DNA of 31,428 nt from a virus, in the UHGV virus genome UHGV-0241329. One strand, written 5' to 3'. Both the position numbers and the translations under genes were made by a program. This document shows, one piece after another, positions 1-29,481 of the stretch (within the stretch, counting starts at the first letter, position 1; every line of letters starts with the position of its first letter). The notes under the pieces are model-generated. The model did no database searches. It was not told the origin of the DNA and worked only from the letters and a program-made list of their open reading frames with translations.

Positions 1-147
1 TTATAACGAGTGTCGTCCACATTCAGCACTGAATTATCAGACGCCATCAGAGTTTGCAGCACGGTGGCGAAATGGAAAATGTGAAGGTAAACAAACCGAC
101 CTTACTAACTGACGGTTGTATCTAATCCTGGGGGCAGGTCAGAGGCT

Positions 148-363
148 ATGAAATCCATGGATAAGTTAACAACGGGCATTGCCTACGGCACCTCCGCAGG
201 CAGTGCTGGCTACTGGTTTTTACAGCTGCTCGATAAAGTCACGCCCTCACAGTGGGCAGCAATAGGTGTGCTGGGTAGCTTGGTATTTGGCCTGCTGACG
301 TACCTGACAAACCTTTATTTCAAGATTAAAGAAGATAAGCGCAAGGCTGCGAGAGGTGAATAA
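148..363 (+). CDS. S: Class II holin (pinholin, phage-21 S-type) with dual-start motif MKSM (71-aa antiholin / 68-aa holin)
   Basis: 71-aa ORF; recalled near-identity to phage 21 S / DLP12 EssD ([17 protein letters not shown]...[22 protein letters not shown]); Met1-Lys-Ser-Met4 dual start; stop overlaps endolysin start (TAATG at 361-365). Confidence 0.85.
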
Positions 364-860
364 TGCCTCCATCATTACGAAAAGCCGTTGCTGCTGCTAT
401 TGGTGGCGGAGCAATTGCTATAGCATCAGTGTTAATCACTGGCCCAAGTGGTAACGATGGTCTGGAAGGTGTCAGCTACATACCATACAAAGATATCGTT
501 GGCGTATGGACTGTATGTCACGGGCATACAGGAAAAGACATCATTCCCGGTAAAACGTATACCGAAGCAGAATGCAAAACCCTCCTGAATAAAGACCTTG
601 CCACGGTAGCCAGACAAATTAACCCGTACATCAAAGTCGATATACCGGAAACAACGCGCGGCGCTCTTTACTCGTTCGTCTATAACGTGGGCGCAGGCAA
701 TTTCAGAACATCTACTCTTCTTCGCAAAATAAACCAGGGCGATATCAAGGGCGCATGTGACCAGCTACGTCGCTGGGCATACGCTGGCGGTAAGCAATGG
801 AAAGGCCTGATGACTCGTCGTGAGATTGAGCGTGAGGTCTGTTTGTGGGGGCAACAATGA
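363..860 (+). CDS. R: SAR endolysin (T4-lysozyme-like muramidase, R21/RrrD-type)
   Basis: 165-aa ORF directly after holin; Gly/Ala-rich N-terminal signal-anchor-release segment [20 protein letters not shown]; lysozyme core resembles R21. Confidence 0.85.
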
Positions 861-1324
861 GCAGGGTAACCGCGATTATCTCCGCTCTGGTTATCTGCAT
901 CATCGTCTGCCTGTCATGGGCTGTTAATCATTACCGTGATAATGCAATCGCCTACAAAGAACAGCGCGATAACAAGGCCAGTGAACTGGAGAAGGCGAAC
1001 GCCACCATTACTGACATGCAGCAGCGCCAGCGTGATGCTGATGCACTCGATGATAAATACACGAAGGAGTTAGCTGATGCGAAAGCTGAAAATGATGCTC
1101 TTCGGCGCAAGCTTGATAATGGTGGTCGGGTGCTCGTCAAAGGAAAATGCCCTGTGCCATCCTCAGTCGAAACCTCCAGCGCCTCCGGCATGGGCAATGA
1201 TGCCACCGTCGAACTCTCTCCAGTTGCTGGACGAAACGTTCTCGGTATCCGGGACGGAATTATCCGCGACCAAACAGCACTGAGAACGCTTCAGGAATAC
1301 ATCAGGACGCAATGCCTTCGATGA
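857..1324 (+). CDS. Rz: Rz i-spanin
   Basis: Starts [31 protein letters not shown], as in lambda Rz; N-terminal TM segment plus coiled-coil periplasmic domain; overlaps endolysin 3' end. Confidence 0.85.
1077..1283 (+). CDS. Rz1: Rz1 o-spanin lipoprotein, embedded in +1 frame of Rz
   Basis: 68-aa ORF entirely inside Rz; lipoprotein signal with lipobox VVGC; proline-rich mature part ([14 protein letters not shown]). Confidence 0.8.
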
Positions 1325-1498
1325 TAGCGATAATTTTACTCATCATCCTTCACATCTGGCTCTGTAGACAGGGTGGTGCTCACTTCTGGAGTGAATCCAG
1401 ATTAAACATCTCATTGCTGATGCTTGATATTGAGCATTTTGCGCGCGGTAAGGGGCTGCGTTGAGATAAGAGCCAGTCATTACAAATACCAGGATTTA

Positions 1499-1521
1499 GC
1501 CTCGCATTCGCGGGGCTTTTT
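1499..1521 (+). terminator. Putative intrinsic terminator downstream of lysis genes
   Basis: GCCTCGC-ATTC-GCGGGGC stem-loop (one G-U pair) followed by TTTTT. Confidence 0.45.
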
Positions 1522-1815
1522 ATTGCCATTACAAAAGCCACTTCCTACAGAGTGGCTTTGATAATGGCTTATACCCTACACGGGATAACTTAACTGATAT
1601 CCCTTTTAAAGGATAAAGGTATTCAAGCCTGACACATCATGCGCTGTATCGTCGCCGTATTCCCGTATTAACAGAGACCGTAGCCCGACGGGGAACTCCT
1701 TCTGCGCGAGTGTGTGGGAATAATCAAAAACGATGCACACCGGGGTTACCGGGTACACATATTTCATCATGCCAGCGAGTCCGGTTCTGGCACGGAAGAA
1801 ACCGGACGTTATGAT

Positions 1816-2241
1816 TTAGTGCGGAAATATTTGTGTAGTGTTCTGAATGTTCTCAGTAAAGAGTAATGAATTATCAAAGGTATAGTAATACCTTTTGTTT
1901 TCGTGGATATTTGTAATCCATCTGAAAACCCCTGCTGTAGCAAGATTTTTCCTGTATTCGTAAAATGATAACTCTCCTGATTTGAATCCTTTTAAGGTGG
2001 CTTCTATAAGGCATTTATTTTTTGAAAATCTTACATTTACAACCTTACCCTGTCCTTTTATTAAAACCGTATTATCGTTTTCAAGAACAAGATGAATATT
2101 CTCTGTGGCTAAATAGTAAATGTAATGTGAGACATTGTGACGTTTTAGTTCAGAATAAAACCAGTGATAGTTTAAATTATTTCGCACTTTATCGAATATT
2201 TGTTTAAAAATGGCAACCTGAGCCATTGTAGTACCTTCCAT
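1816..2241 (-). CDS. Hypothetical protein, visibly AT-rich moron between lysis cassette and cos
   Basis: 141-aa ORF on reverse strand, AT-rich relative to flanking phage genes; no motif recognised; true start may be the internal Met (MAQVAIF). Confidence 0.5.
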
Positions 2242-2282
2242 GTGATATGAGGGGTGTAGTCTGCACGATTATCTAAATTGCT

Positions 2283-2516
2283 TCAATCTGGTCTGATCTG
2301 TTTTCTGAGCAATTCAGTAATGTCACTCTTTTCTTTGTTTGCTTCAGGAGAAACTCTTTTTTCTGAGCACAGTCTCCGGCGGCAGGCTTCAATGACCCAG
2401 GCTGAGAAATTCCCGGACCCTTTTTGATCAAGAGCGATGTTAATTTGTTCAATCATTGGGTTAGGAAAGCGGATGTTGCGGGTTGTTGTTCTGCGGGTTC
2501 TGTTCTTCGTTGACAT
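2283..2516 (-). CDS. ylcI: Small DNA-binding protein, YlcI/DUF3950-like
   Basis: 77-aa ORF; recalled close match to DLP12 YlcI (MSTKNRTRRTTTRNIRFPN.MIEQINIAL.QKGSGNFSAWVIEACRRRL); sits immediately upstream of cos. Confidence 0.6.
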   Translation of the reverse strand: MSTKNRTRRTTTRNIRFPNPMIEQINIALDQKGSGNFSAWVIEACRRRLCSEKRVSPEANKEKSDITELLRKQIRPD

Positions 2517-2689
2517 GAGGTTGTCCCGTATTCAGTGTCGCTGATTTGTATTGTCTGAAGTTGTTTTTACGTTAAGTTGATGCAGATCAATTAATATGAT
2601 ACCTGCGTCATAATTGATTATTTGACGTGGTTTGATGGCGTAGATGCACGTTGTGACATGCAGATGATAATTATTATCATTTTGCGGGT

Positions 2690-2900
2690 CCTTTCCGGCG
2701 ATCCGACAGGTTACGGGGCGGCGACCTCGCGGGTTTTCGCTATTTATGAAAATTTTCCGGTTTAAGGTGTTTCCGTTCTTCTTCGTCGTAACTTAATGTT
2801 TTTATTTAAAATACCCCCTGAAAAGAAAGGAAACGACAGGTGCTGAAAGCGAGCTTTTTGGCCTCTGTCGTTTCCTTTCTCTGTTTTTGTCCGTGGAATG
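2690..2900 (+). other. cos: Prophage cos site (cosQ-cosN-cosB); 12-nt cohesive end GGGCGGCGACCT at 2716..2727
   Basis: Sequence ...ATCCGACAGGTTACG/GGGCGGCGACCTCGCGGGTTTTCGCTATTTATGAAAATTTTCCGG... matches the recalled lambda cos ends; R-site-like motifs (CGTTTCC) continue up to Nu1. Confidence 0.9.
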
Positions 2901-2904
2901 AACA

Positions 2905-3424
2905 ATGGAAGTCAACAAAAAGCAGCTGGCTGACATTTTCGGTGCGAGTATCCGTACCATTCAGAACTGGCAGGAACAGGGAATGCCCGTTCTGCGAGGC
3001 GGTGGCAAGGGTAATGAGGTGCTTTATGACTCTGCCGCCGTCATAAAATGGTATGCCAAAAGGGATGCTGAAATTGAGAACGAAAAGCTGCGCCGGGAGG
3101 TTGAAGAACTGCGGCAGGCCAGCGAGGCAGATCTCCAGCCAGGGACTATTGAGTACGAACGCCATCGACTTACGCGTGCGCAGGCCGACGCACAGGAACT
3201 GAAGAATGCCAGAGACTCCGCTGAAGTGGTGGAAACCGCATTCTGTACTTTCGTGCTGTCGCGGATCGCAGGTGAAATTGCCAGTATTCTCGACGGGATC
3301 CCCCTGTCGGTGCAGCGGCGTTTTCCGGAACTGGAAAACCGACATGTTGATTTCCTGAAACGGGATATCATCAAAGCCATGAACAAAGCAGCCGCGCTGG
3401 ATGAACTGATACCGGGGTTGCTGA

Positions 3425-3450
<26 letters not shown>
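2905..3450 (+). CDS. Nu1: Terminase small subunit
   Basis: 181-aa ORF starting MEVNKKQLADIFGASIRTIQNWQEQGMPVLRGGGKGNEVLYD, recalled lambda gpNu1; directly downstream of cos. Confidence 0.95.
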
Positions 3451-7131
<3,681 letters not shown>

Positions 7132-7151
<20 letters not shown>

Positions 7152-8451
7152 TCTCCCGCATATTGCCAGTATGGCCTTTAATGAGCCGCTGATGCTTGAA
7201 CCCGCCTATGCGCGGGTTTTCTTTTGTGCGCTTGCAGGCCAGCTTGGGATCAGCCGCCTGACGGATGCGGTGTCCGGCGACAGCCTGACTGCCGGAGAGG
7301 CACCCGCGGCGCTGGCGTTATCCGTTGATGATGACGGACCACGACAGGCCCGCAGTTATCAGGTCATGAACGGCATCGCCGTGCTGCCGGTGTCCGGCAC
7401 GCTGGTCAGCCGGACGCGGGCGCTGCAGCCGTATTCGGGGATGACCGGTTACAACGGCATTATCGCCCGTCTGCAACAGGCTGCCAGCGATCCGATGGTG
7501 GACGGCATTCTGCTGGATATGGACACACCGGGCGGGATGGTGGCGGGAGCATTTGACTGTGCTGACATCATCGCCCGTGTGCGAGACATAAAACCGGTAT
7601 GGGCGCTGGCCAACGACATGAACTGCAGTGCAGGTCAGCTGCTTGCCAGCGCCGCCTCCCGGCGTCTGGTCACGCAGACCGCCCGGACAGGCTCCATCGG
7701 CGTCATGATGGCTCACAGTAATTACGGTGCTGCGCTGGAGAAACAGGGCGTGGAAATCACGCTGATTTACAGCGGCAGCCATAAGGTGGATGGCAACCCC
7801 TACAGCCATCTACCGGATGATGTCCGGGAAACACTGCAGTCCCGGATGGATGCAACCCGCCGGATGTTTGCACAGAAGGTGTCGGCATATACCGGCCTGT
7901 CCGTGCAGGCTGTGCTGGATACCGAGGCTGCAGTGTACAGCGGTCAGGAGGCCATTGATGCCGGACTGGCTGATGAACTTGTGAACAGTACCGATGCGAT
8001 CACCGTCATGCGTGATGCACTGGATGCACGTAAATCCCGTCTCTCAGGAGGGCGAATGACCAAAGAGACTCAATCAACAACTGTTTCAGCCACTGCTTCG
8101 CAGGCTGACGTTACTGGCGTGGTGCAAGCGACGGAGGGCGAGAACGCCAGCGCTGCGCAGCCGGACGTGAACGCGCAGATCACCGCAGCGGTTGCGGCAG
8201 AAAACAGTCGCATTATGGGGATCCTCAACTGTGAGGAGGCTCACGGACGCGAAGAACAGGCATGCGTGCTGGCCGAAACCCCCGGTATGACCGTGGAAAC
8301 GGCCCGCCGTATTCTGGCCGCAGCACCACAGAGTGCACAGGCGCGCAGTGACACTGCGCTGGATCGTCTGATGCAGGGGGCACCGGCACCGCTGGCTGCA
8401 GGTAACCCGGCATCTGATGCCGTTAACGATTTGCTGAACACACCAGTGTAA
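7132..8451 (+). CDS. C: Head maturation protease / scaffold C
   Basis: GTG start at 7132 preceded by GAGGAGGAG gives a 439-aa product beginning (M)SAELRNLPHIASMAFNEPLML, lambda gpC-like; overlaps B 3' end. Confidence 0.85.
7846..8451 (+). CDS. Nu3: Scaffolding protein Nu3, in-frame internal start within C
   Basis: ATG at 7846 in the C frame; 606 nt, same length and nested arrangement as lambda Nu3. Confidence 0.75.
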   Translation: MDATRRMFAQKVSAYTGLSVQAVLDTEAAVYSGQEAIDAGLADELVNSTDAITVMRDALDARKSRLSGGRMTKETQSTTVSATASQADVTGVVQATEGENASAAQPDVNAQITAAVAAENSRIMGILNCEEAHGREEQACVLAETPGMTVETARRILAAAPQSAQARSDTALDRLMQGAPAPLAAGNPASDAVNDLLNTPV

Positions 8452-8460
8452 GGGATGTTT

Positions 8461-8793
8461 ATGACGAGCAAAGAAACCTTTACCCATTACCAGCCGCTGG
8501 GCAACAGTGACCCGGCTCATACCGCAACCGCGCCCGGCGGGTTGAGTGCGAAAGCGCCTGCAATGACCCCGCTGATGCTGGACACCTCCACCCGTAAGCT
8601 GGTTGCGTGGGATGGCACCACCGACGGTGCTGCCGTTGGCATTCTTGCAGTTGCTGCTGACCAGACCAGCACCACACTGACGTTCTACAAGTCCGGCACG
8701 TTCCGTTATGAGGATGTGCTCTGGCCGGAGGCTGCCAGCGACGAGACGAAAAAACGGACCGCGTTTGCCGGAACGGCAATCAGCATCGTTTAA
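8461..8793 (+). CDS. D: Head decoration protein D
   Basis: 110-aa product [27 protein letters not shown]..., recalled lambda gpD. Confidence 0.95.
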
Positions 8794-8814
8794 CCTGACC
8801 CTTCATCACTAAAG

Positions 8815-8835
8815 GCCGCCTGTGCGGCTTTTTTT
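8815..8835 (+). terminator. Stem-loop with T-run between D and E
   Basis: GCCGC-CTGT-GCGGC followed by TTTTTTT. Confidence 0.4.
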
Positions 8836-8848
8836 ACGGGATTTTTTT

Positions 8849-9124
8849 ATGTCGATGTACACAACCGCCCAGCTGCTGGCGGCAAATGAGCAGAAATTTA
8901 AGTTTGATCCGCTGTTTCTGCGTCTCTTTTTCCGTGAGAGCTATCCCTTCACCACGGAGAAAGTCTATCTCTCACAAATTCCTGGACTGGTAAACATGGC
9001 GCTGTACGTTTCGCCAATTGTTTCCGGTGAGGTTATCCGTTCCCGTGGCGGCTCCACCTCTGAATTTACGCCGGGTTATGTCAAGCCGAAGCACTTAGCA
9101 TGGCTTTCTGAGGCTTTCGTGTAG
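8849..9124 (+). pseudogene. E: Major capsid protein E, 5' fragment (about 82 codons) truncated by the insertion and fused to 9 foreign codons (LAWLSEAFV)
   Basis: MSMYTTAQLLAANEQKFKFDPLFLRLFFRESYPFTTEKVYLSQIPGLVNMALYVSPIVSGEVIRSRGGSTSEFTPGYVKPKH matches recalled lambda gpE N-terminus, then diverges at 9094. Confidence 0.9.
9084..9093. repeat. attL core, AGCCGAAGCA (left copy of 10-bp direct repeat)
   Basis: Identical 10-mer at 9084..9093 and 20351..20360, exactly where lambda E homology stops and resumes. Confidence 0.8.
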
Positions 9125-9203
9125 TTGCTGGTTTTTACACTTAATCTTTTGATAATAAAGAATAAGTTTATCTGGCGCTTTCACTGAATTTTCCTCGTTA
9201 TCT

Positions 9204-9245
9204 GTGTGTTGCAATCATCTCTGTATTGCAGCTTGTATTGCTTTT
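9204..9245. repeat. Putative integrase arm-type sites (TGTATTGCA-like repeats) in attL arm
   Basis: TGTTGCAA / TGTATTGCA / TGTATTGC at 9207..9241; same motif twice near attR (20253..20273). Confidence 0.45.
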
Positions 9246-9256
9246 TGGGGCTAAAA

Positions 9257-10492
9257 ATGGCTGGCGAGAACAAACTGAGCGACAAAGCGCTTAAAGGATA
9301 TCTGGGGAAACCCAGAGAAAAGCAGATCACCATTGCTGATGGAAAGGGGCTTTCTATTCGTGTGAGTACTAAAGGGGCTGTGAGCTTTGTTTTCTTCTAC
9401 AGGTTAGCAGGTGGCCGGGCTGCTCCGGTCTGGCTAACGTTGGGTAAATATCCTGATATGTCACTCAAATAGGCAAGGGAAAAGCGCGACGAGTGCCGTG
9501 GTTGGTTGGTTGACAAACGTGATCCGCGTATCCAGATTAAGATTCAGGCTGAAGAACGCTTAAAGCCGGTCACAGTGGAGGATGCACTAAATTACTGGTA
9601 TGAAAATTACTGTAAGGTGCGTCGTAAAACTCATGCTGTAACGCTTGGCAGATTTCGAAAGCATATCTTTCCCTATATCGGTCATTTGCCCGTAAATGAC
9701 ACTCACCTATATGAATGGCTGGACTGTTTTGACCGAATTAAACGTAATGCACCAGTTATGGCGGCGTATGTTTTTTCTGACACTAAATTAGCTCTTCGTT
9801 TTTGTCGGGTACGCCAGTACGCGACGTGTGATGCTTTAAAGGATTTGCGCATGAGTGATGTGGGGCAGATTGCAGGTAAGCGGGATCGGGTTCTGGATGA
9901 AGCCGAACTGGGCCAGCTCTGGAAGGCAATTTTTGTCGAGCCTGATTTAAAACTAATGTCTGAATACACGCGAAAAATGTTTGTGCTTTGTACAGTATTT
10001 GGATGTCGAATGAGTGAAGCCCGATTATCTGAATGGAGCGAATGGGATCTCGAAAGTTGGGTTTGGACTGTACCAAAAGATCACTCAAAAACTGGTGTTG
10101 AAATCGTCAGACCAGTACCTGAAATTCTACGACAGTGGGTAACGGATGTTCACGAAGAGACAAAACATACTGGTTATGTGCTGGGAAGTCTGCGAATTAG
10201 AGAAAGCGTAAGCAAGATTGGGGGGAAAATCGGTAAACGTTTGGGCCATGAAAAACAATGGTCACTACACGACCTTAGAAGAACGCTATCTACTCATCTA
10301 AGTGATCTCGGTGTTGAATTTTATGTAGTAGAACAACTGTTAGGCCATGCGCTACCTGGCGTGGCAGGTGTTTACAACAGGAGTAAGTTTATGGCTAAAA
10401 AACTGGATGCTCTGGAACTCTGGACTACATATCTCAATAGCATCGCAGCTGCTGATTCAAAAGTGACAATCCTCAAACAAAAGGCTGGTTAA
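9257..10492 (+). pseudogene. int: Tyrosine integrase (P4-like family) interrupted by in-frame amber codon TAG at 9470..9472
   Basis: Two same-frame ORFs (9206..9472 and 9506..10492) separated only by TAG; N-terminal arm-binding-like domain; C-terminal catalytic motifs HDLRRT and LLGH..GVAGVYNRS. Confidence 0.8.
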
Positions 10493-10493
10493 C

Positions 10494-10721
10494 ATGAAAA
10501 AAATGGCAATTGTTGATAAAAAGGGTCTGGAGTACATTCCTAACATTGACCGAATGATCCGTGAGAAAGAATGTCGGGAGCTAACCACTCTTGCGAACAG
10601 CACACGCTGGAAGCTGGAGAAGGAAGGAAAATTTCCTAAGCGGATCAAGATTGGCGCTACTGCGGTAGCTTATCGTCTCTCCGAAGTTCAGGCATGGATT
10701 AAGGGAGAATGGAGTAATTAA
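10494..10721 (+). CDS. alpA: AlpA-family phage transcriptional regulator / excisionase-like HTH protein
   Basis: 75-aa ORF immediately after int; sequence resembles CP4-57 AlpA-type HTH proteins (LSEVQAWIKG-like C-terminus). Confidence 0.7.
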   Translation: MKKMAIVDKKGLEYIPNIDRMIREKECRELTTLANSTRWKLEKEGKFPKRIKIGATAVAYRLSEVQAWIKGEWSN

Positions 10722-10739
10722 ATAATAAGGTATTTCGAT

Positions 10740-11561
10740 ATGACAATGTGTGTTATTTGGAAGTCAGTTGATGGAACTATTTATGCCGCCACAGATTCTC
10801 GACTGAGCTTTGAAGAAAAAAAGTTAGATCGTTGCGTTAAAATATCCCGAATCACATGTCTTTTACATGAGCCTAGTGATGCAGTAGATACAAGTAAGAT
10901 ACTTGTTGATAAGCGTGAGATTGCTACATTATTCTGTGGAGGCTTTACAAATGCCTATATCATCAAGGAGAGCCTTACTGAGATTTTAAATAAAATAGTT
11001 CTCATGAGGGAATACTCCGGTGTGCCCTTTTCGGAAATTATAGATATAGCGTTTTCCATTTATGAAGATACATCAAGAGATATGTTTGCATCATTAATGG
11101 ACCAACGATTTGGATGTGTTTTTTACATGATAAGTTACTGCCCTGTATATAAGGAAATGCAAGCATTTAAATTTGAATTCAAAATAAATGAAAGCGGTAT
11201 TAACTATTATAAATCTAAACTTTTTGAAGATCGTAACTATGAGGTTAATGGAAGTGGGGTGAGGTACTTGGAACAAAATCATCGTATTGAAGATCTAGTT
11301 AAAGAAGCTTATCAGAAGAATAAATACACACCACTTCTAGATATACTTGAGTCCGTAATTAATGATGACGACTGTGACTCTGTTGGAGGTGCAATGCAAT
11401 ACATTTCATGTAATAAAGATAGTCTAAAATTGTGTTGTCATATGTTATTTGAAGAAAATAATTATAAGTATATGAAAGCTGGGGTGGACTTAAATGAACT
11501 CAATGAGAAGTTTATACCTTCTGGTTTGTTTTTTGAGACAGATGCAATCATCAAAAGATAA
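10740..11561 (+). CDS. Hypothetical protein, AT-rich cargo gene
   Basis: 273-aa ORF, visibly AT-rich; no motif recognised; N-terminus MTMCVIW... gives only a faint hint of an N-terminal Cys nucleophile. Confidence 0.55.
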   Translation: MTMCVIWKSVDGTIYAATDSRLSFEEKKLDRCVKISRITCLLHEPSDAVDTSKILVDKREIATLFCGGFTNAYIIKESLTEILNKIVLMREYSGVPFSEIIDIAFSIYEDTSRDMFASLMDQRFGCVFYMISYCPVYKEMQAFKFEFKINESGINYYKSKLFEDRNYEVNGSGVRYLEQNHRIEDLVKEAYQKNKYTPLLDILESVINDDDCDSVGGAMQYISCNKDSLKLCCHMLFEENNYKYMKAGVDLNELNEKFIPSGLFFETDAIIKR

Positions 11562-11866
11562 ACGATAACCGACTTTGATTGTGATAATTTTATCAAGATT
11601 ATGATGAATGCTGCAGTATATCTAACATGCTGCAGTTAACTCAATTTGTATTATCGCTAATATTTTTAATAACAAGGATGTTTATTGCTTTTTTATTTGA
11701 GAGTGAACGTCTAACCATTGTTGTTCTTAGTTCTCATGGAGAGATTGGAGCTTAAAATACGCAATGTTTTGAAATCAGCGCAACTATATTCCGTAATTGT
11801 TCTTTGTCGTTCTTGCGTGGCACGGTGATACACCTCTCATGTCGGTTGTTTTTTTGAACGCAGAAA

Positions 11867-11896
11867 CATAAAACAAAGGCGACCGGGATGGTCGCC
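11867..11896 (-). terminator. Intrinsic terminator downstream of the SWIM gene
   Basis: GGCGACC-GGGAT-GGTCGCC perfect 7-bp stem; on reverse strand followed by TTTGTTTTAT. Confidence 0.6.
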
Positions 11897-11964
11897 AGTG
11901 GCATAACACTAAAATTGAGCGTATTCAGAATACCAAGTGTCGGCTGGTGGACAATGGAATCAGT

Positions 11965-12321
11965 TCAATATTTAGGTGGTTCAACAAGAGCGTTTATCAT
12001 TGCTCTCAAATTATCGCGAACACTTATCCAAGTCTGTTCTGCTCGTTCTAACTCATTAGTGTACAGCTTTAATGTTTTATCTATGCCATATGTGGCTATT
12101 AAATTTATAGCTTCTTGTAACTTTTCGGGATTATTCCTTCTTGGGGGAGTGAATATACCGCGGATTTTTCCGGTAATTAAAGCTTTACGGTGTCTACATA
12201 GAATACCTTTACTTCCTGCTGGACAATTACAAGTCATGATTAGCGAGCCAGAATCGTTTGATACAGTGACTATGTATACATCCAAACTACTGCTACTTGT
12301 TGCGAAGAATTCGTATTTCAT
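11965..12321 (-). CDS. Small SWIM-type zinc-finger protein
   Basis: 118-aa ORF with CNC-x9-CRH (CxCx(n)CxH) motif; co-oriented 28 bp downstream of RHH gene. Confidence 0.55.
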   Translation of the reverse strand: MKYEFFATSSSSLDVYIVTVSNDSGSLIMTCNCPAGSKGILCRHRKALITGKIRGIFTPPRRNNPEKLQEAINLIATYGIDKTLKLYTNELERAEQTWISVRDNLRAMINALVEPPKY

Positions 12322-12348
12322 GTGTTAGCTCCTTGACTTCAATTATTC

Positions 12349-12543
12349 TTATCCTTTTGGTTCAATACCGCGCCGTAGCAGCTCTTTGCGCCCTAACTCT
12401 TTAAGCCAGTTGGCAAGGCTTACCCCATCGTTACTGGCTTCGTTATCAAACTGCTCCTTCAATTCAGGAACTATGCGCATATGGAACGGTGGGGCCTTTC
12501 CTGTGCCTTTTTGTTTTTTATCGCGCTTAATAACCGTTGACAT
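12349..12543 (-). CDS. Ribbon-helix-helix (Arc/CopG-like) DNA-binding protein, candidate element repressor
   Basis: 64-aa ORF; FHMRIVPELKEQF beta-strand followed by helices; start codon overlaps a palindromic operator. Confidence 0.5.
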   Translation of the reverse strand: MSTVIKRDKKQKGTGKAPPFHMRIVPELKEQFDNEASNDGVSLANWLKELGRKELLRRGIEPKG

Positions 12544-12600
12544 GTGTACACCTATAGCGTTATGTTTTTATTCGATAGGTGTACACCTTAACATGTGTGC
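12541..12600. promoter_or_regulatory. Divergent control region with palindromic operators
   Basis: GTGTACACCTAT (12544..12555) and its inverted copy ATAGGTGTACAC (12575..12586), each containing palindrome GTGTACAC; ACATGTGT repeated; TTGACA at 12537..12542. Confidence 0.5.
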
Positions 12601-12878
12601 ATTTAAAAACGCAACGCCCCGCAGTGCGGGAACACATGCAGGGCGTCTAACCACCAACGATAGCAACAGTATCGAGGTAGCTATGAGAAATCATACCACA
12701 CACCCGCAAGGGCGGGACTCGCACAACCTGAATAAATTCACTTGGCGCTTTATCGCCCTGAGTGCGGCTAAACCGCGCATGCTTACCATCGTGGTCACCA
12801 GCGAGCAGGAAGACCGCCAGCAATCCCCAACTGGCTGCGTGATGATATTCGCCGCCCGTATTCGTCAGGAGGTGTGCC

Positions 12879-13103
12879 ATGAATGATCTTTATTTTAAAG
12901 TGCTGACACATGCTGAAAACGCGCTCGTTTGTGGCAAAAATATGCGAGAAATCTTATCAACCTGGCTTGATGGGACAACAAATGCGGAACACGATGAACG
13001 GGATGCTAATTTAGCTGGAGCGTTAATTACGTTACTTGATCCTGTCATCAAAGAGCTGGATGAAGCTATAAAAATACACGACCAGAGCTATACCGGAGAA
13101 TAA
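12879..13103 (+). CDS. Hypothetical small protein
   Basis: 74-aa ORF, first gene of the rightward operon leading to primase. Confidence 0.45.
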   Translation: MNDLYFKVLTHAENALVCGKNMREILSTWLDGTTNAEHDERDANLAGALITLLDPVIKELDEAIKIHDQSYTGE

Positions 13104-13106
13104 AAA

Positions 13107-13394
13107 ATGAAAAATAAATTTTCTGGCTTTATTGCCAGCGGTCAAACTCATTCAAAAATCAGCCTTGGGGATATTTTCAAAGACAGCTATGGCTATCGGG
13201 TAAAGATTATTTCGGTTGATGATCGTCGTGTCTCTTATTTGCGTGATGGTTATGATTTTGAATGTGTTATGCCGCGTCAGCAGTTCGAAAGAGATTTCAT
13301 TCTGGTAAAAAATTGCAAGACAGATAATCAGAGGCGTGCCGCAGGCTATATCCGTAAAATTCGGGCAATGTTAGTTGCCGGAGGTAACAAATGA
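13107..13394 (+). CDS. Hypothetical small protein
   Basis: 95-aa ORF; 3' end overlaps primase start (ATGA). Confidence 0.45.
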   Translation: MKNKFSGFIASGQTHSKISLGDIFKDSYGYRVKIISVDDRRVSYLRDGYDFECVMPRQQFERDFILVKNCKTDNQRRAAGYIRKIRAMLVAGGNK

Positions 13395-15211
13395 AACGTG
13401 CTCCGAACTTAAAATACCAACCGCGCGACAAAATGACGGAAGTCATCATTTTTGCTGGCAGTGATGCCTGGAGCCATGCAAAAGAATGGAATGAATGGGC
13501 AGGTAAGCATATTGCAGCAGATGATACACCACCAGTCATTCTGGGTACGGAACAACTGGAAAACCTGGATGATATGCAAATTATCGATGAAGGCCGTCAT
13601 TATGTGCGTGTTTATCGTGCCGGAAAGATTGCAGAGAAAAGTCTGACGAAGGTTGCGACATTACTTGCTATTGCAGGCGTAAAGGAAGCACGTTGTTACC
13701 GTAGCTTTGTTGATCGAGAGCCTGAAGACTGGACTCCGCGCCTTGTCGGCCTAAAAGCTGAAGCGGAGCATGGGGAAAGTCTGGTGATTGAACTGCCAGT
13801 GAAGAAGGCAGAGCGCAAAAATGACGAGCGTGCTTCATCTTTGGCGTTGAATCAGATGGGGGCCAGCCAGCGCGGTGAAGTTCTCCTTGCACATTACGGC
13901 GGTGAACTGGCAATCAATGCCGACTCTGACACCGTTCATCATTACAACGGCGTTGTATGGGAGCCGGTTCAGGATAAAGAGTTACAGCGTTCTATGGCGC
14001 AGATTTTCATTGATGCGGAGATCAGCTATTCGCAGAACGCTATTAAATCGGCGGTAGATACCATGAAGTTAAGTTTGCCTGTAATGGGGAATACAGCCCG
14101 TAACCTGATTGGATTCAGTAACGGGGTATTTGATACCAGAACTGGTAATTTTCGGGAGCATAACAAAAACGACTGGTTGTTAATTGCCAGTGAATTACCT
14201 TTCAGCCCACCAGCAGAGGGGGAAACGCTGGCAACACATGCGCCGAATTTCTGGAAGTGGTTGCGCCGTTCGGTGGCTGAGAATGACCGCAAGGCAGATC
14301 GCGTACTGGCGGCATTATTCATGGTGCTGGCGAACCGGTACGACTGGCAGTTATTCATTGAGGTAACAGGGCCGGGGGGAAGTGGTAAAAGTGTGATGGC
14401 GGAGATTTGCACCATGCTGGCGGGTAAGGCTAATACAGTATCAGCAAGCATGAAGGCGCTGGAAGATGCAAGGGAACGTGCGTTAGTGGTTGGCTTTTCG
14501 CTGATTATCATGCCGGATATGACCCGCTACGCTGGTGATGGGGCAGGGATTAAGGCCATTACAGGCGGTGACAAGGTGGCAATTGACCCGAAACACAAAG
14601 CCCCCTATTCAACGCGTATTCCGGCAGTAGTGCTGGCGGTTAACAATAACGCCATGTCATTCAGTGACCGCAGCGGGGGGATCTCACGTCGTCGGGTGAT
14701 ATTCAATTTTTCGGAAGTTGTACCGGAGAACGAACGCGATTCGATGCTGGCGGAAAAAATAGAAGGTGAGCTGGCGGTAGTGATTCGTCATCTGCTTACA
14801 AGGTTTGCTGATCAGGACGAAGCCAGACGCCTGTTATATGAGCAGCAGAAATCTGAAGAAGCACTGGCGATAAAGCGAGAGGGGGATTCGCTGGTGGACT
14901 TCTGCGGTTATCTCATGGCATCGGTAATGTGTGATGGCCTGTTAGTGGGTAATGCTGAAATTGTGCCATTCAGCCCACGCAGGTATCTCTATCATGCCTA
15001 TCTGGCTTATATGAGGGCACATGGGTTTGGTAAACCTGTAACACTGACGCGCTTCGGTAAAGATATGCCGGGGGCAATGGCGGAATATGGCAGGGAGTAT
15101 ATGAAACGGAAAACGAAGCACGGTTTGCGTTCAAACGTGACACTGACGGAGGAATCAGAAGACTGGATGCCATCATGTGTATCGGTCACTAATGACGATA
15201 GCAAAAATTAA
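13391..15211 (+). CDS. Primase-helicase replication protein (P4 alpha / PICI Pri-Rep-like)
   Basis: 606-aa ORF; Walker A EVTGPGGSGKS in C-terminal half; followed directly by iteron origin. Confidence 0.75.
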   Translation: MKRAPNLKYQPRDKMTEVIIFAGSDAWSHAKEWNEWAGKHIAADDTPPVILGTEQLENLDDMQIIDEGRHYVRVYRAGKIAEKSLTKVATLLAIAGVKEARCYRSFVDREPEDWTPRLVGLKAEAEHGESLVIELPVKKAERKNDERASSLALNQMGASQRGEVLLAHYGGELAINADSDTVHHYNGVVWEPVQDKELQRSMAQIFIDAEISYSQNAIKSAVDTMKLSLPVMGNTARNLIGFSNGVFDTRTGNFREHNKNDWLLIASELPFSPPAEGETLATHAPNFWKWLRRSVAENDRKADRVLAALFMVLANRYDWQLFIEVTGPGGSGKSVMAEICTMLAGKANTVSASMKALEDARERALVVGFSLIIMPDMTRYAGDGAGIKAITGGDKVAIDPKHKAPYSTRIPAVVLAVNNNAMSFSDRSGGISRRRVIFNFSEVVPENERDSMLAEKIEGELAVVIRHLLTRFADQDEARRLLYEQQKSEEALAIKREGDSLVDFCGYLMASVMCDGLLVGNAEIVPFSPRRYLYHAYLAYMRAHGFGKPVTLTRFGKDMPGAMAEYGREYMKRKTKHGLRSNVTLTEESEDWMPSCVSVTNDDSKN

Positions 15212-15220
15212 ACTTATGGA

Positions 15221-15455
15221 ATAACTGTTCACCACTGTTCACCCTGTCATAAATATCTTTTATATCAGTATATTATAGGGTGAACAGTTATTTATGAACT
15301 GTTCACCAAACTATTCACTGTTCACCTTTTTGATTGTTTATTGAGCTTCAAGGGTGAACAGTGGTGAACAGTTGGTGAATAGTTTTTGTGAAACTGTTCA
15401 CCCATTAACATTATGAATTAAAAGAGAAAATATCAAAAGGTGAACAGGTGAAGGG
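15221..15455. repeat. ori: Replication origin with iterons (TGTTCACC / GGTGAACA), at least 9 copies in both orientations
   Basis: CTGTTCACC at 15225 and 15235; GGTGAACAG at 15278, 15352, 15362, 15439; further copies at 15299, 15318, 15394; interspersed AT-rich stretches. Confidence 0.75.
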
Positions 15456-15498
15456 TTAAAACGCAAAAATTTTAATTTACTGCTGTGAGATAAAGCCT

Positions 15499-15744
15499 AT
15501 GACAGCGAAGCACACAAAAAAATCACAATCGCACGCCCTTGATTTGACGGAACACTGGTTAAGGGTGTCGATAAAAATCATCGACCGCAACGCCGGGGAA
15601 GGATACGCGAAAGCACATCCCGAACTGATTAGCGCATTCATGACAACGGCGGCTGCAAACTTTGCCACTCTGACCGAACGGGAGATTGCTGAAGCGGAGG
15701 AAGTGACAACAATCAATATTAAGTCCGGAGAGCAGGCAGCATGA
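15499..15744 (+). CDS. Hypothetical protein
   Basis: 81-aa ORF between ori and ssb; ATGA overlap with ssb. Confidence 0.45.
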   Translation: MTAKHTKKSQSHALDLTEHWLRVSIKIIDRNAGEGYAKAHPELISAFMTTAAANFATLTEREIAEAEEVTTINIKSGEQAA

Positions 15745-16190
15745 CGGCGCAAATATCAGTTTACGGGCGGTTGGTGGACGACCCGCAGACAAAACAGACC
15801 AGCAAGAGCACCCCCATGACGCTGGCACGTATGGCGGTATCACTGCCCTGCAGTCAGTCGGATGACGGTCAGGCGACGATGTGGTTATCTGTCCTGGCGT
15901 TTGGCAGACAAGCCGACGCGCTGGCAAAGCATCACAAAGGCGAACTCCTGAGCGTGGCGGGTAATATGCAGGTGAGCCAGTGGACTGGACAGAACGGTGA
16001 AACGCGGCAGGGCTGGCAGGTTATCGCAGACAGCGTAATCAGTGCGCGAACGGTGCGACCGGGCGGCAAAAAAGGTCAACAGGGTCAGGCTACTGACGCA
16101 CTGAACAGAGCAAAACAACAGGCAGATCAGCAAGGAAGCCATCCACCAGTGGGAGATAATGAGCAATGGGGAGATGATATTCCGTTTTAA
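15741..16190 (+). CDS. ssb: Single-stranded DNA-binding protein
   Basis: 149-aa ORF; Gly/Gln-rich linker and acidic C-terminal tail ...GDDIPF, typical of SSB. Confidence 0.8.
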   Translation: MTAQISVYGRLVDDPQTKQTSKSTPMTLARMAVSLPCSQSDDGQATMWLSVLAFGRQADALAKHHKGELLSVAGNMQVSQWTGQNGETRQGWQVIADSVISARTVRPGGKKGQQGQATDALNRAKQQADQQGSHPPVGDNEQWGDDIPF

Positions 16191-16402
16191 ATATTGCCAA
16201 TAAAAAAGGCCGGAAAAAAAATAAATTTTCCGGCATGCTACATAAATCCCGACCAAAGGGAGTGAAGATATTAACACTAATTATCCGCGCTGAAGTTGTT
16301 ATCCCAAAACTTTATACAACATTGCACTCGGTTGCATGTATTCGCATGATAAATATCGGTGATAGCATATATCCACAATTATTTTTAATGAATGCAAAGA
16401 GG

Positions 16403-17449
16403 ATGCGTATGGTTGATTTATATTCGCCTACCCAGCTTGTACAGGTGGTTAATGCTGTAGATGTACAAAAACAACTAAATGCGTTGTTTACCAGTTTGTT
16501 TTTTACTCGCTCGGTAATGTTTGAATCGCGCGATATTATTCTTGATACAATCGACGATCCAAATATCCCAATTGCAGCGTTTTGTTCTCCTATGGTGGGT
16601 AGTAAAGTTTCACGTGACGAAGGGTACGAATCAAAAACAATTCGTCCAGGCTATATGAAGCCGAAAAGCAGCATTGATCCAAATAAGTTAGCTGTGCGCC
16701 CTGCTGGTGTATCACCTGAGCAATACAATGCTTTTGGAGCGCGTAATATTAAAGTTAAACAGGCGATTGTAAATCAGGCTAAAGCTATTCGTGCACGTAT
16801 TGAATGGCTTGCCGTTCAGGCAATCACAACGGGGAAAAATATCATTGAGGGCGATGGTATTGAACGTTATGAGCTGGACTGGAATATTAAACCACAAAAT
16901 ATCATCACTCAGTCTGGCGGTGCTGAGTGGTCAGGTAAGGATAAAGAAACTTTTGATCCAAATGATGATATTGAGAGCTACGCAGAATTTAGTGAGGGCG
17001 TCACTAATATCATCATTATGGGCGGTAATGTATGGAAGAAATACCGTTCATTCAGAGCGATAAAAGAGGCTCTGGATACCCGTCGTGGTTCTAATTCCGA
17101 ACTGGAAACGGCCCTTAAAGACCTTGGTGATTCGGTGAGTTTTAAAGGGTATATGGGCGATGTTGCGATTGTTGTATACAGCGGGCGTTATACCGATGAG
17201 GACGGAACTGAAAAACATTTCCTTGATCCTGATTTGATGGTGCTTGGCAATACAGCTCTTCAGGGGATTGTCGCCTATGGCGGTATTCAGGATCCGGAGC
17301 TAATCCGAATGGGGCTGACTAAAGCCGAACTTGCACCGAAAAACTATATTGTGCCTGGTGATCCGGCTATTGAATATGTGCAGACACATTCAGCACCACA
17401 GCCAATACCGGCCCGCATCAATCGTTTTGTTACCGTTCGCATTGGCTAA
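16403..17449 (+). CDS. Major capsid protein, divergent homolog of lambda gpE, encoded by the element
   Basis: Aligns along its length with lambda gpE, e.g. ITQSGGAEWSGKDKETFDPNDDIESYA vs ITQSGGTEWSKRDKSTYDPTDDIEAYA, and LDTRRGSNSELETA identical; start uncertain among ATG 16388/16403/16409. Confidence 0.8.
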   Translation: MRMVDLYSPTQLVQVVNAVDVQKQLNALFTSLFFTRSVMFESRDIILDTIDDPNIPIAAFCSPMVGSKVSRDEGYESKTIRPGYMKPKSSIDPNKLAVRPAGVSPEQYNAFGARNIKVKQAIVNQAKAIRARIEWLAVQAITTGKNIIEGDGIERYELDWNIKPQNIITQSGGAEWSGKDKETFDPNDDIESYAEFSEGVTNIIIMGGNVWKKYRSFRAIKEALDTRRGSNSELETALKDLGDSVSFKGYMGDVAIVVYSGRYTDEDGTEKHFLDPDLMVLGNTALQGIVAYGGIQDPELIRMGLTKAELAPKNYIVPGDPAIEYVQTHSAPQPIPARINRFVTVRIG

Positions 17450-17458
17450 GGGGGAGCA

Positions 17459-17800
17459 ATGGCTACTCATTACACTGAACTCATGGCTGGCACTGAAGCA
17501 CTGGTGACTACGCTGGGGATATTTTCAGCTAATAAAGGGGTAATTCCTGCATTTACGCCACTGATGCAGGAAGATGCAACAGGTGCACTGGTGGTATGGG
17601 ATGGTTCGAGCGTAGGTAAAGCGGTTTATGTTTCCGCTGTACAAATCGACACCGCGAAAAAAACACAGGCTCAGGTCTATAAGACAGGTGTCTTAAATGT
17701 TGATGCTCTGAACTGGCCTGAGTCTGTAAAAGAACTGTCAGTAAAGATTGCAGCGTTTGTTGGCTCAGGTATTTCTGTTCAGCCGCTGGCTCGTGTGTAA
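17459..17800 (+). CDS. Head decoration protein, divergent homolog of lambda gpD
   Basis: 113 aa; LVVWDGSSVGKAVYVSAVQ...KTGVLNVDALNWPE...AAFVGSGISV parallels lambda gp[20 protein letters not shown]...[14 protein letters not shown]...[11 protein letters not shown]. Confidence 0.65.
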   Translation: MATHYTELMAGTEALVTTLGIFSANKGVIPAFTPLMQEDATGALVVWDGSSVGKAVYVSAVQIDTAKKTQAQVYKTGVLNVDALNWPESVKELSVKIAAFVGSGISVQPLARV

Positions 17801-17811
17801 AGGGGGATACA

Positions 17812-18195
17812 ATGCAGAATGATTACAATGACCTTAAGCCAATTGCCGAAATGATGTACCCGAATCCAGCTGTAGAGGAATTAAAAGCTATCGCTGACAA
17901 AATGTGTTTAAGCGAGCGCCTTGTTGATATGAATCAGGTGATGGAAATTACAACCCTGAGTCGGCGTACACTGCTAAACCTTGAGGCTAGTGGAGAGTTC
18001 CCGGAGCGTGTGCAGGTTACGGAAGGGCGTAAGGCCTGGTATTTAAGTGAAGTGATCGACTGGATAAATAATATTCCTCGCGCTTCTGAATATTGCCGCG
18101 TACCTGTCCCAAAAAAGCCAGATGCGGCGCTATGCCTCAAGATTGAGCGTGTACGCCGCAATGCACGGGATGGTCGCTATAAGCTGATTGGTTGA
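17812..18195 (+). CDS. HTH protein (AlpA-like DNA-binding segment) immediately upstream of element cos
   Basis: 127 aa; segment MNQVMEITTLSRRTLLNLEASGEFPERVQVTEGRKAWYLSEVIDWINN resembles AlpA/MerR-type HTH. Confidence 0.5.
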   Translation: MQNDYNDLKPIAEMMYPNPAVEELKAIADKMCLSERLVDMNQVMEITTLSRRTLLNLEASGEFPERVQVTEGRKAWYLSEVIDWINNIPRASEYCRVPVPKKPDAALCLKIERVRRNARDGRYKLIG

Positions 18196-18214
18196 TGAAA
18201 TTAGGGCCCGCTCT

Positions 18215-18425
18215 GGCTGGCGGGTCCTTTCTGGCGATCTGACAGGCTACGGGGCGTCAGGCGCGCAGATTCTTGCTATTTATGACAATTTTCTGCGATT
18301 TGCCGTTTCCGTTCTTCTTCCTCGTAACTTAGTGTTTTTATTAGAAATACCCTCTAAAAAGAAAGGAAATGACAGGTGCTGAAAACAGGCTTTTGGGTCT
18401 CCGTCATTTCCTTTCTCATTTTTAT
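18215..18425 (+). other. cos: Element cos site, homologous to prophage cos but with divergent cohesive-end sequence GGGCGTCAGGCG (18252..18263)
   Basis: Aligns with 2690..2900: cosQ-like GCGGGTCCTTTCTGGCGATCTGACAGGCTACG and cosB-like GTTTCCGTTCTTCTTC / AAAGAAAGGAAATGACAGGTGCTGAAA conserved; cohesive-end 12-mer differs at 5 of 12 positions. Confidence 0.8.
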
Positions 18426-18679
18426 CTAAAAGTAAGCATCGAGGCCACCCCAAATGCTTATAGAGGTTATTGTGTCACTATGCGTACTGTTCAGGATTTA
18501 AAGTAGCAAGACATCTAGTTGCTTGCAGTTTTGGCGAATGATGTGAGGTTCTGCTATAACAGATAATGTAACAAGTTACTGATATATTCTGTTATGGTTG
18601 ACTTTAAATTTTGTTGCTCCTTCAATGAATTATTGAGGGGTGAAAATTAGGCGTGATAAGAATCGATCACGCCTATTGT

Positions 18680-19996
18680 TTATCTTGAAGAAATTTTAGG
18701 CAGGCTTTTTAAAAATAAATCTTTATTTCTACTTGCATCAGTTAAAAGTGTTAGGAATATTTTATCTGTAGGAGTGCATGTGCTCTTGTTTAACAGTAAT
18801 TCACCAAGTTTCTGTAATCGAGAGAATTGCCCATCCTCTTGGATTCTGTGACGAAGTGTACTATCATTTTTAATAACATCAACAAATGCAGAAACCATGT
18901 TAATATCAAAGTGTTCAAACATTTCCAATATTAAAGGTGCAGCCCCATTTGAATAAAAATTCTTCCTTCCATACTGATAGCTGAAACCACGATGGCCAAC
19001 ATAAGTTTTTGTAATGGCTGAAACAAATTCAACAATATTATCTTCAGGGACGAAACTCGAGAATGGTAATAATTGGGTTACGATTTTTTCCTCTTCTGAC
19101 CAATTATCTAAAGACTCGGTGAGTTTATTAATGAGAGGCTCAATAATAACTTTTCGGGATGCAGGGCTAATATACATCAGTCCATCTACCAATAGTATGA
19201 ATTGTTGTGCCTTCTCTATCTTATTGTTGTTTCCTGAAACTAAATACTTGTCAAATTGTTGGCCGACTTTACGTCGGTCGTCTTTTGAAAGTAATGTCCA
19301 TAAAATAGGTGCGCAAAATTCAATGTTGTTTCTGAGTTCACTTGATATATTGGATGAGCAGTATGTGCCAAAAAAACGAGAGGATAATTCACTGATATAA
19401 ATTGCAGGTAGATCTGAAAAGGCTTGCTTAACTGCCAGGCTATTTTTATTAAATGTTGCCGAATCCATTTCTGAAAGATATGTAGATATATCTATGATGG
19501 CTGGTGGAAACTCTTTAGAAAGAACGTATTTATTACAATCATTAATCAGGTTCACTACTTTGATTAAATCAGGGTCGCTACTTTGTGGATGTCCACCAAA
19601 TAGATTCCTGGTTTCTCTAGCTTGTTGTAATAGTTTCTGACCTTCTCGATCGATAACTCCTATTTTAAATGCTCCATCTATTAAATCAAAGTCGCTCACA
19701 TAATCCTGAAAATCTTCATACGTTTTAATTTCTTTTTTTTGTTTACACTCTTTGTTGAATAGATCTAGGCTACGATGAATTATCTTTTGACGTAAATCAT
19801 CAACTACAGCATTCCAGTAAGCAGTGATGGCACTTCTATAACCTTTTACAGGAAGAACTCTTATTGCTTCTGAAATATATGGGCAGTCAACTACATCATG
19901 CCTCACAGTTGAGAGCGCAGTTTGTAACAATGTAACTTCTGTAGAGTCTAGTGGAGTTGGCTGCACTAAATGAGAACTTATCTCTGTACCCTTCAT
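18680..19996 (-). CDS. Hypothetical protein, AT-rich cargo gene at attR end
   Basis: 438-aa ORF on reverse strand, visibly AT-rich; no motif recognised; hairpin AGGCGTGAT-N8-ATCACGCCT at 18649..18674 just 3' of it. Confidence 0.55.
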   Translation of the reverse strand: MKGTEISSHLVQPTPLDSTEVTLLQTALSTVRHDVVDCPYISEAIRVLPVKGYRSAITAYWNAVVDDLRQKIIHRSLDLFNKECKQKKEIKTYEDFQDYVSDFDLIDGAFKIGVIDREGQKLLQQARETRNLFGGHPQSSDPDLIKVVNLINDCNKYVLSKEFPPAIIDISTYLSEMDSATFNKNSLAVKQAFSDLPAIYISELSSRFFGTYCSSNISSELRNNIEFCAPILWTLLSKDDRRKVGQQFDKYLVSGNNNKIEKAQQFILLVDGLMYISPASRKVIIEPLINKLTESLDNWSEEEKIVTQLLPFSSFVPEDNIVEFVSAITKTYVGHRGFSYQYGRKNFYSNGAAPLILEMFEHFDINMVSAFVDVIKNDSTLRHRIQEDGQFSRLQKLGELLLNKSTCTPTDKIFLTLLTDASRNKDLFLKSLPKISSR

Positions 19997-20350
19997 TTCA
20001 GGATTTTCCTATTCTTTTCCATTTTTCTACTCTATTGAATTTGAAAAAGATATCAAGTTCGTTCTTGCCAGTTTTAAGTGGAAAAATTGATGTTACCTTA
20101 TTGAGATAAGGCAGTTCTCTATAACCTATTGTTATTAATTATTTTTATTTTTTTTCCAATTCAGATGTTTAGGGCTAAGAAGTTAAGTGAGAGTTCACAG
20201 CAAAACTGCTTCTAGTTCCTCACCGAGGAGCAAAAGGTTAAGACAGCGTACTTTGTATTGCACAATGTATTGCAGAACCTTCTTTCGAAAGCTACAACAA
20301 TCAATTTTATATTGAAAATTCAATCATATCCTTTCGATATTGACTCATAT

Positions 20351-20360
20351 AGCCGAAGCA
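20351..20360. repeat. attR core, AGCCGAAGCA (right copy of 10-bp direct repeat)
   Basis: Identical to 9084..9093; lambda E homology resumes here. Confidence 0.8.
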
Positions 20361-21141
20361 TGAGGTGAATCCGCAGATGACCCTGCGTCGCCTGCCGGAT
20401 GAAGATCCGCAGAATCTGGCGGACCCGGCTTACCGCCGCCGTCGCATCATCCTGCAGAACATGCGTGACGAAGAGCTGGCCATTGCTCAGGTCGAAGAGA
20501 TGCAGGCAGTTTCTGCCGTGCTCAAGGGCAAATACACCATGACCGGTGAAGCCTTCGATCCGGTTGAGGTGGATATGGGCCGCAGTGCGGCGAACAACAT
20601 CACGCAGTCCGGCGGCACGGAGTGGAGCAAGCGTGACAAGTCCACGTATGACCCGACCGACGATATCGAAGCCTACGCGCTGAACGCCAGCGGCGTGGTG
20701 AATATCATCGTGTTTGATCCGAAAGGCTGGGCGCTGTTCCGTTCCTTCAAAGCCGTCAAGGAGAAGCTGGATACCCGTCGCGGCTCTAATTCCGAGCTGG
20801 AGACAGCGGTAAAAGACCTGGGCGAAGCGGTGTCCTATAAGGGGATGTATGGCGATACGGCGATCGTCGTGTATTCCGGACAGTACGTGGAAAACGACGT
20901 CAAAAAGAACTTCCTGCCGGACAACACGATGGTGCTGGGGAACACTCAGGCACGCGGTCTGCGCACCTATGGCTGCATTCAGGATGCGGACGCACAGCGC
21001 GAAGGTATTAACGCCTCTGCCCGCTACCCGAAAAACTGGGTGACCACCGGCGATCCGGCGCGTGAGTTCACCATGATTCAGTCAGCACCGCTGATGCTGC
21101 TGGCTGATCCTGATGCGTTCGTGTCCGTACAACTGGCGTAA
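20353..21141 (+). pseudogene. E: Major capsid protein E, 3' fragment (from codon about 80) lacking its native start
   Basis: PKHEVNPQMTLRRLPDEDPQNLADPAYRRRR...VSVQLA matches recalled lambda gpE C-terminal 260 aa; in-frame TAG at 20350..20352 immediately upstream. Confidence 0.9.
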
Positions 21142-21182
21142 TCATGGCCCTTCGGGGCCATTTTCTCTCTGTGGAGGAGTCC

Positions 21183-21578
21183 ATGACGAAAGATGAACTG
21201 ATTGCCCGTCTTCAGGTGCTGGGTGAGCAACTGAACCGTGATGTCAGCCTGACGGGGACGAAAGAAGAACTGGTGCTCCGTGTGGCAGAGCTGGAAGAGG
21301 AGCTTGATGACACGGATGACGCTGCCGGTCAGGACACATCTGTCAGCCCGGAAAATGCGCTGACCGGACATGAAAATGAGGTGGTATCAGCGCAGCCGGA
21401 TACCGTGATTGATACGGCTGCTCTGGTCACGGTCGTGGCACTGGTGACGCTGCATACTGATGCACTTCACGCCACGCGGGATGAGCCTGTGGCATTTGTG
21501 CTGCCGGGAACGGCGTTTCGTGTCTCTGCCGGTGTGGCAGCCGAAATGACAGAACATGGCCTGGCCAGAATGCAATAA
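21183..21578 (+). CDS. FI: DNA-packaging accessory protein FI
   Basis: MTKDELIARLQVLGEQLNRDVSLTGTKEEL..., recalled lambda gpFI; RBS GGAGGAG upstream. Confidence 0.9.
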   Translation: MTKDELIARLQVLGEQLNRDVSLTGTKEELVLRVAELEEELDDTDDAAGQDTSVSPENALTGHENEVVSAQPDTVIDTAALVTVVALVTLHTDALHATRDEPVAFVLPGTAFRVSAGVAAEMTEHGLARMQ

Positions 21579-21589
21579 CGGGAGGCGCT

Positions 21590-21943: not shown

Positions 21944-21954
21944 AAGGGGGATGT

Positions 21955-22925: not shown

Positions 22926-22932
22926 GGACGCT

Positions 22933-23673: not shown

Positions 23674-23688
23674 TCCGGAGAGTCAGCG

Positions 23689-28105: not shown

Positions 28106-28110
28106 ATCCC

Positions 28111-29423: not shown

Positions 29424-29481
29424 TGAAAAACGTTTATGTGAAACCGCCTCCGGGCGGTTTTGTCGTTTATGGAGCGTGAGG

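Follow-up and report, generated by a model that had tools for sequence, protein, structure and literature searches.

The closest described relatives of the element analyzed here are the helper-embedded PICIs (HE-PICIs) of the 11capE type reported by Tommasini, Mageeney and Williams in 2023, whose type element is Eco567.11capE of E. coli NRG857c (PMC10111431). Upon induction with mitomycin C, the composite of satellite and helper in NRG857c excises and replicates, as demonstrated by qPCR and deep sequencing, and the satellite next excises precisely, thereby regenerating attB in the helper gene E (PMC10111431). For the HE-PICIs at E_Phage_cap_E_80, the supplement of that study lists the identity block agccgaagca; moreover, doubled motifs were described at a distance of 81 +/- 2 bp upstream and 132 +/- 2 bp downstream of the attP center, and the presence of a shared cos-like segment within the satellite was reported (PMC10111431). 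Like EcCICFT073-type Gram-negative PICIs and P4, the element studied here encodes a P4-type integrase that contains an Arm-DNA-bind_3 domain, together with AlpA and a P4-alpha-like primase, and further common traits are an Icd-like gene, which occurs in its relatives, and packaging via cos, for which a lambdoid helper is presumably responsible. By contrast, EcCICFT073 and P4 are located in chromosomal genes, while the satellite under study is embedded in one of its helper's late genes.

The window, i.e. the whole stretch of 31,428 nt that was analyzed, corresponds to a lambdoid prophage's late region, with lysis genes, Nu1, A, W, the portal and protease genes, D, E, FI and tail genes. An insertion of 11,267 bp, lying between 10-bp direct repeats of the sequence AGCCGAAGCA, divides the major capsid gene E into two fragments (Table 1). 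The annotations of homologous loci label the 5′ fragment of E as a partial major capsid protein. The satellite genes are arranged in the order integrase, alpA, variable zone, primase, SSB, E-family capsid, D-family decoration and a second AlpA-like gene, followed by a cos-like segment. The plus strand encodes the integrase, AlpA, the primase and the capsid protein of the satellite, whose genes thus share the orientation of the helper genes Nu1 to J, including the interrupted one. The capsid protein of the satellite (346 aa) is 41.5% identical to the reconstructed helper E. The helper cos region, to which the cos-like segment of the satellite is related, adjoins the upstream side of the helper Nu1 gene.

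Table 1. Features of the interrupted E gene and of the embedded satellite (coordinates refer to the window).
Feature	Position	Strand	Remarks
Helper E 5′ fragment, codons 1 to about 82	8849..9093	+	Pfam Phage_cap_E positions 1-78 of 329
attL core AGCCGAAGCA, 10-bp identity block	9084..9093	.	sole 10-mer common to both junctions
Doubled TGTATTGC motif, candidate arm-type site	9222..9241	+	starts about 133 bp downstream of the att center
Integrase codons 1-71, incomplete arm-binding domain	9257..9469	+	sole part translated before the stop
Amber codon TAG (Q72*)	9470..9472	+	from CAG via C-to-T at 9470
Integrase codons 73-411 plus TAA	9473..10492	+	rest of arm, core-binding and catalytic domains; otherwise undamaged
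alpA, excisionase/regulator, intact	10494..10721	+	Pfam Phage_AlpA, E 6e-15
Satellite primase/helicase, replication zone	13391..15211	+	Pfam D5_N, DUF5906, Pox_D5; primase annotation in homologous loci
Satellite's own E-family major capsid gene, intact	16409..17449	+	Pfam Phage_cap_E
Satellite's own D-family head decoration gene	17459..17800	+	Pfam HDPD
cos-like copy within the satellite	18220..18423	+	82.6% identity over 207 bp to 2684..2888 (helper cos region)
Second doubled TGTATTGC motif	20254..20273	+	ends about 82 bp upstream of the att center
attR core AGCCGAAGCA	20351..20360	.	same shared 10-mer
Helper E 3′ fragment	20361..21141	+	joins 8849..9093 into an open 341-codon E

The integrase gene deviates from that of NRG857c at only 5 of 1236 nt, four of them besides the amber site discussed below, resulting in 4 amino acid differences including the stop. 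The integration site, the orientation and the gene order are those of Eco567.11capE, with the left fragment of E ending close to the named Phage_cap_E position and the 10-bp identity block repeated at both junctions. The doubled TGTATTGC motif has two exact matches in the window, compared to 0.03 expected by chance; the two copies are co-oriented and, at 82.5 bp upstream and 133.5 bp downstream of the attP center, exhibit the published spacing. Judged by these features, the element is an already described HE-PICI of the 11capE type, inserted at site E:Phage_cap_E:80 (PMC10111431). What separates it from the type element is codon 72 of the integrase, TAG in the window and CAG in NRG857c, the att core, which reads AGCCGAAGCA here and AACCCAAGCA in NRG857c (both variants are listed in the supplement of PMC10111431), and the set of accessory genes in the two variable zones, where NRG857c carries HEPN and DUF262 genes.

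The accessory genes of the window (10740..11561 on the plus strand, 11965..12321 and 18680..19996 on the minus strand) occupy positions whose content differs between hosts, and in EC-10 an Abi-like gene was found in the same slots. The encoded products are a 273-aa protein without a Pfam or PADLOC match, a SWIM-zinc-finger-like protein of 118 aa and a 438-aa protein (PF27235, AF_1680). A PADLOC search with five satellite accessory proteins gave weak, uninformative matches only. It is possible that these genes constitute swappable defence cargo. Rfam did not return any family at gathering score over the window (1..31428), neither a recoding element nor the P4-type C4/isrK immunity RNAs that have been reported for some HE-PICIs.

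The integrase gene (9257..10492, plus strand) starts with an ATG at 9257 and extends to the TAA ending at 10492. Within this single frame of 411 codons, which specifies a P4-type tyrosine integrase, the only internal stop is the TAG at codon 72 (...YPDMSLK*AREKRDECR...). When Gln was substituted for the stop, the 411-aa product matched the Pfam families Arm-DNA-bind_3 (residues 7-93), Phage_int_SAM_3/Phage_int_M and Phage_integrase (213-377). The solved arm domains of CP4-like integrases (3JU0 and 3JTZ) align straight through the stop, over the conserved segment '...YP..SL..AR..RDE...'. According to these alignments, the stop falls within the arm-binding domain and not at a domain border. Downstream of it, the motifs CRMSE (250), HDLRR (338), LLGH (361) and VYNRS (372) are preserved, which we take to contain the catalytic residues Arg, His-x-x-Arg, His and Tyr, each assigned individually on the basis of motifs known for this class of enzymes. 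The uninterrupted frame through all three domains, which is expected of a functional recombinase, is broken at codon 72. The original prediction had described an integrase split by a single in-frame amber codon at a position where related integrases have a sense codon. Frame, translation and Pfam domains bear out the first statement, and CAG (Gln) in every relative examined the second. The proposed division into an arm-binding and a catalytic part is correct in that both share one frame, are separated by the TAG alone and match intact homologs; it has to be revised with regard to the site of the break, which lies inside the arm domain.

To assess the frequency of the allele, a 61-mer surrounding the site was searched in 5,426 complete E. 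coli genomes, 175 of which carry this stretch. The C version was found as an exact match in 173 of them, the other two having one other mismatch, while the T version was absent from all 175. Metagenome contigs gave the same picture, as all 23 contigs containing a 56-mer of this site have CAG and none has TAG. Complete integrase copies among metagenome contigs were intact in 17 of 18 cases. Neither allele is present in the GTDB species representatives. At codon 72, CAG was read in E. coli ET665, in EC-10 and in the type strain NRG857c, the activity of whose integrase has been demonstrated by experiment.

We consider it likely, with a probability of roughly 85%, that the stop goes back to a recent spontaneous C-to-T transition (CAG to TAG at Gln 72) and represents ordinary loss-of-function decay which locks the 11capE satellite in E. 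Evidence for this reading comes from ET665 (NZ_CP100933.1), the closest complete genome, whose satellite is likewise inserted into a lambdoid gene E and differs from that of the window at 7 of 11,267 bp (99.94% identity). Two of the differences are located in the attL core and another one is position 9470, a T in the window and a C in ET665, in which the integrase gene is intact. The flanking helper head genes diverge by 2.7-3.6%, the satellites by only 0.06%, and the att cores are different as well (AGCCGAAGCA in the window, AACCCAAGCA in ET665). These findings suggest that a single satellite lineage has integrated independently, and very recently, into helper prophages which are diverged. 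Since a near-identical satellite resides in two diverged helpers, it can be inferred that recent mobility with a working integrase preceded the nonsense mutation, which would have occurred afterwards in the lineage of the window. The TAG allele is apparently young because so few bases distinguish the element from that of ET665. Apart from the amber codon, the integrase gene and the remainder of the element are undamaged, and no lesion was detected in alpA, in the att cores or in the arm-type motifs.

Similar lesions occur in related elements. In ET665, the capsid gene of the satellite contains an ochre codon (GAA to TAA, codon 132; locus L001, 19260..20300, corresponding to 16409..17449 of the window, with the difference at window position 16802), and the gene is annotated with an 'internal stop'. 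The situation in ET665 is thus the reverse of that in the window, which has a broken integrase gene and an intact capsid gene. A metagenome contig (L028, SKEI01006090.1, about 1991..2958) has lost approximately 260 bp of the integrase gene (nt 504-763) but kept CAG at codon 72. This deletion and the ochre codon of ET665 indicate that single inactivating mutations are part of the normal turnover of such elements. The amber codon is best explained by the ordinary decay of a mobile element through mutation and not as a means of regulation.

If the integrase has decayed in this way, translation would terminate after 71 residues and yield a fragment without the conserved arm-domain helix, while a product restarted downstream would not have any arm domain. 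With such products, active integrase is expected to be absent or very scarce. The 11.3-kb satellite would then be unable to excise from the helper gene E, and E would not be rebuilt upon induction. For a satellite with the amber allele, excision after induction is predicted to be lost or strongly reduced. The composite, exceeding the helper by about 11 kb, would probably not be packaged, considering that packaging by lambda tolerates roughly 10% excess length (PMC10111431), and satellite and helper would both be immobilized. A pseudogenized integrase and an element locked in E had been foreseen in the original prediction; the location inside the helper E was verified, and this reading is the best supported one. 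The additional claim of a helper that remains without functional capsid gene in both cases turned out to be wrong, since excision at the 10-bp core would rebuild the 341-codon E, and an integrase produced by suppression or read-through would thus repair the gene. The claim also fails because the satellite has intact E-family capsid and D-family decoration genes of its own, which, as suggested for these elements, could replace the interrupted gene even before excision (PMC10111431).

Low-level read-through of UAG or a supE-type suppressor of the host might insert Gln at codon 72 and thereby provide wild-type integrase, permitting rare or condition-dependent excision. Termination at UAG is never fully efficient, and in E. 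coli this codon is occasionally read through by near-cognate tRNA-Gln. As CAG, the ancestral codon, specifies Gln, read-through by this tRNA or by a supE-type suppressor would restore the wild-type sequence exactly. The base following the TAG is a G. The remainder of the excision kit (alpA, the att cores and the two doubled motifs) is intact, and, as the part of the host genome seen here is the window alone, the host may possess an amber suppressor or another related integrase that acts in trans. Classical supE-suppressible amber mutants of phages are similar in that a CAG-to-TAG change is fully corrected by a Gln-inserting suppressor, but the allele described here arose naturally in a wild clone in which no suppressor is known to be present. 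On the other hand, no tRNA gene, and hence no suppressor tRNA, was found across the 31,428 nt of the window. Tyrosine recombinases act as tetramers, so that a large drop in the amount of protein should reduce excision more than proportionally. Furthermore, the stop is missing in all 198 other copies examined, which argues against a selected feature. We regard a leaky or conditional integrase as unlikely. Nothing in the sequences indicates that suppression is a designed feature, as none of the relatives shares the stop.

It is even more doubtful, and in our opinion very unlikely, that the amber allele has been selected in its clone, be it as a domestication that disarms a lethal composite while retaining the cargo, or as a switch by which read-through permits excision at very low frequency. 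In both cases, the arm fragment of 71 residues might block incoming related satellites at the arm sites.

The loss-of-function reading presupposes that the T at 9470 is real. An error of sequencing or assembly, with a C as the true base and an intact integrase gene, had been named as a possible objection to the original prediction. The window apparently is a metagenome assembly, as it is 100% identical to a contig (k141_30690) of ENA ERZ27316054, and no error could be smaller than one that affects a single base. However, the TAG was read directly not only in this contig, which is collinear with the window and identical to it over 20.5 kb, but also in the separately assembled contigs of Logan DRR171866 (seen in 2 samples) and Logan SRR31598941, which are 100% identical to the window over 4.1 and 2.2 kb, respectively. 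Since the same codon occurs in contigs of at least three archive samples, a sequencing error is highly improbable. The ENA analysis accession may re-assemble one of the public runs, but the DDBJ and NCBI runs would still be separate data sets; a literature search on the three sample accessions did not reveal anything, so that the origin and independence of the samples are documented by their distinct archive prefixes alone. Two more long contigs were reported as places similar to the window, and five contigs are known to contain the 328-codon downstream reading frame, which only the amber allele creates. The TAG allele is real, rare and derived, and it is confined to one clone. Its occurrence in several samples shows that this clone persists, so that the host, at least, does not suffer severely from the mutation.

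The least probable explanation is programmed recoding or a naturally split integrase, composed of an arm-domain peptide and a catalytic protein restarted at a domain boundary: a 328-codon reading frame does begin with TTG at 9506, 34 nt past the stop, but the Shine-Dalgarno pairing ahead of this codon and of the other in-frame candidates GTG 9575 and GTG 9617 is weak (-2.5 to -3.3 kcal/mol), further in-frame restart codons that were scored downstream were not convincing either, the stop cuts inside a domain, a restarted protein would be devoid of the arm domain whose need for arm-site-dependent recombination is established for lambda-type integrases, continuous reading frames of 411 codons were seen in the 17 intact metagenome copies and in every annotated genome copy that was inspected, no homolog being split, and none of the 175 genomes or of the 23 metagenome contigs has the conserved stop expected of programmed read-through. 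A phage-type reassignment of TAG to Gln was also considered and rejected, because a single gene contains a single TAG, the window lacks a suppressor tRNA and relatives that are nearly identical carry CAG.

Regarded as a natural loss of integrase function, the allele carries little weight on its own, because it is due to a single nonsense mutation, concerns one clone of an element family that has already been published and does not reveal a new mechanism. It is of practical value as an integrase-null allele that a helper-embedded PICI has acquired naturally, so that no genetic engineering is needed. A strain carrying it could be used to test whether the helper E remains silent unless the satellite excises, and whether the captured capsid gene of the satellite substitutes for E. 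It could also show what a locked composite with two cos regions packages. The helper cos and the cos-like copy of the satellite are co-oriented and 15.5 kb apart. One may speculate that, if the satellite cannot excise, terminase might cut at both sites and package sub-genomic cos-to-cos fragments.

Further amber alleles were initially suspected, since the exact product of 71 aa is known as WP_141033202.1 and from five other contigs, but all of them carry C (CAG). They were discarded as evidence because all six contigs (L006-L011), which stem from different assemblies, end at 9470 or 9471, i.e. at the polymorphic site, so that the genes are partial due to the contig end; one of the contigs is the source of the RefSeq entry WP_141033202.1, which is itself labeled 'partial'. 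The accumulation of ends at this position is probably a selection bias of an exact-sequence look-up among fragmentary contigs, as partial genes that differ in length recur just as often in the cluster. Such contig-end partials are a trap when amber alleles are counted via protein identity.
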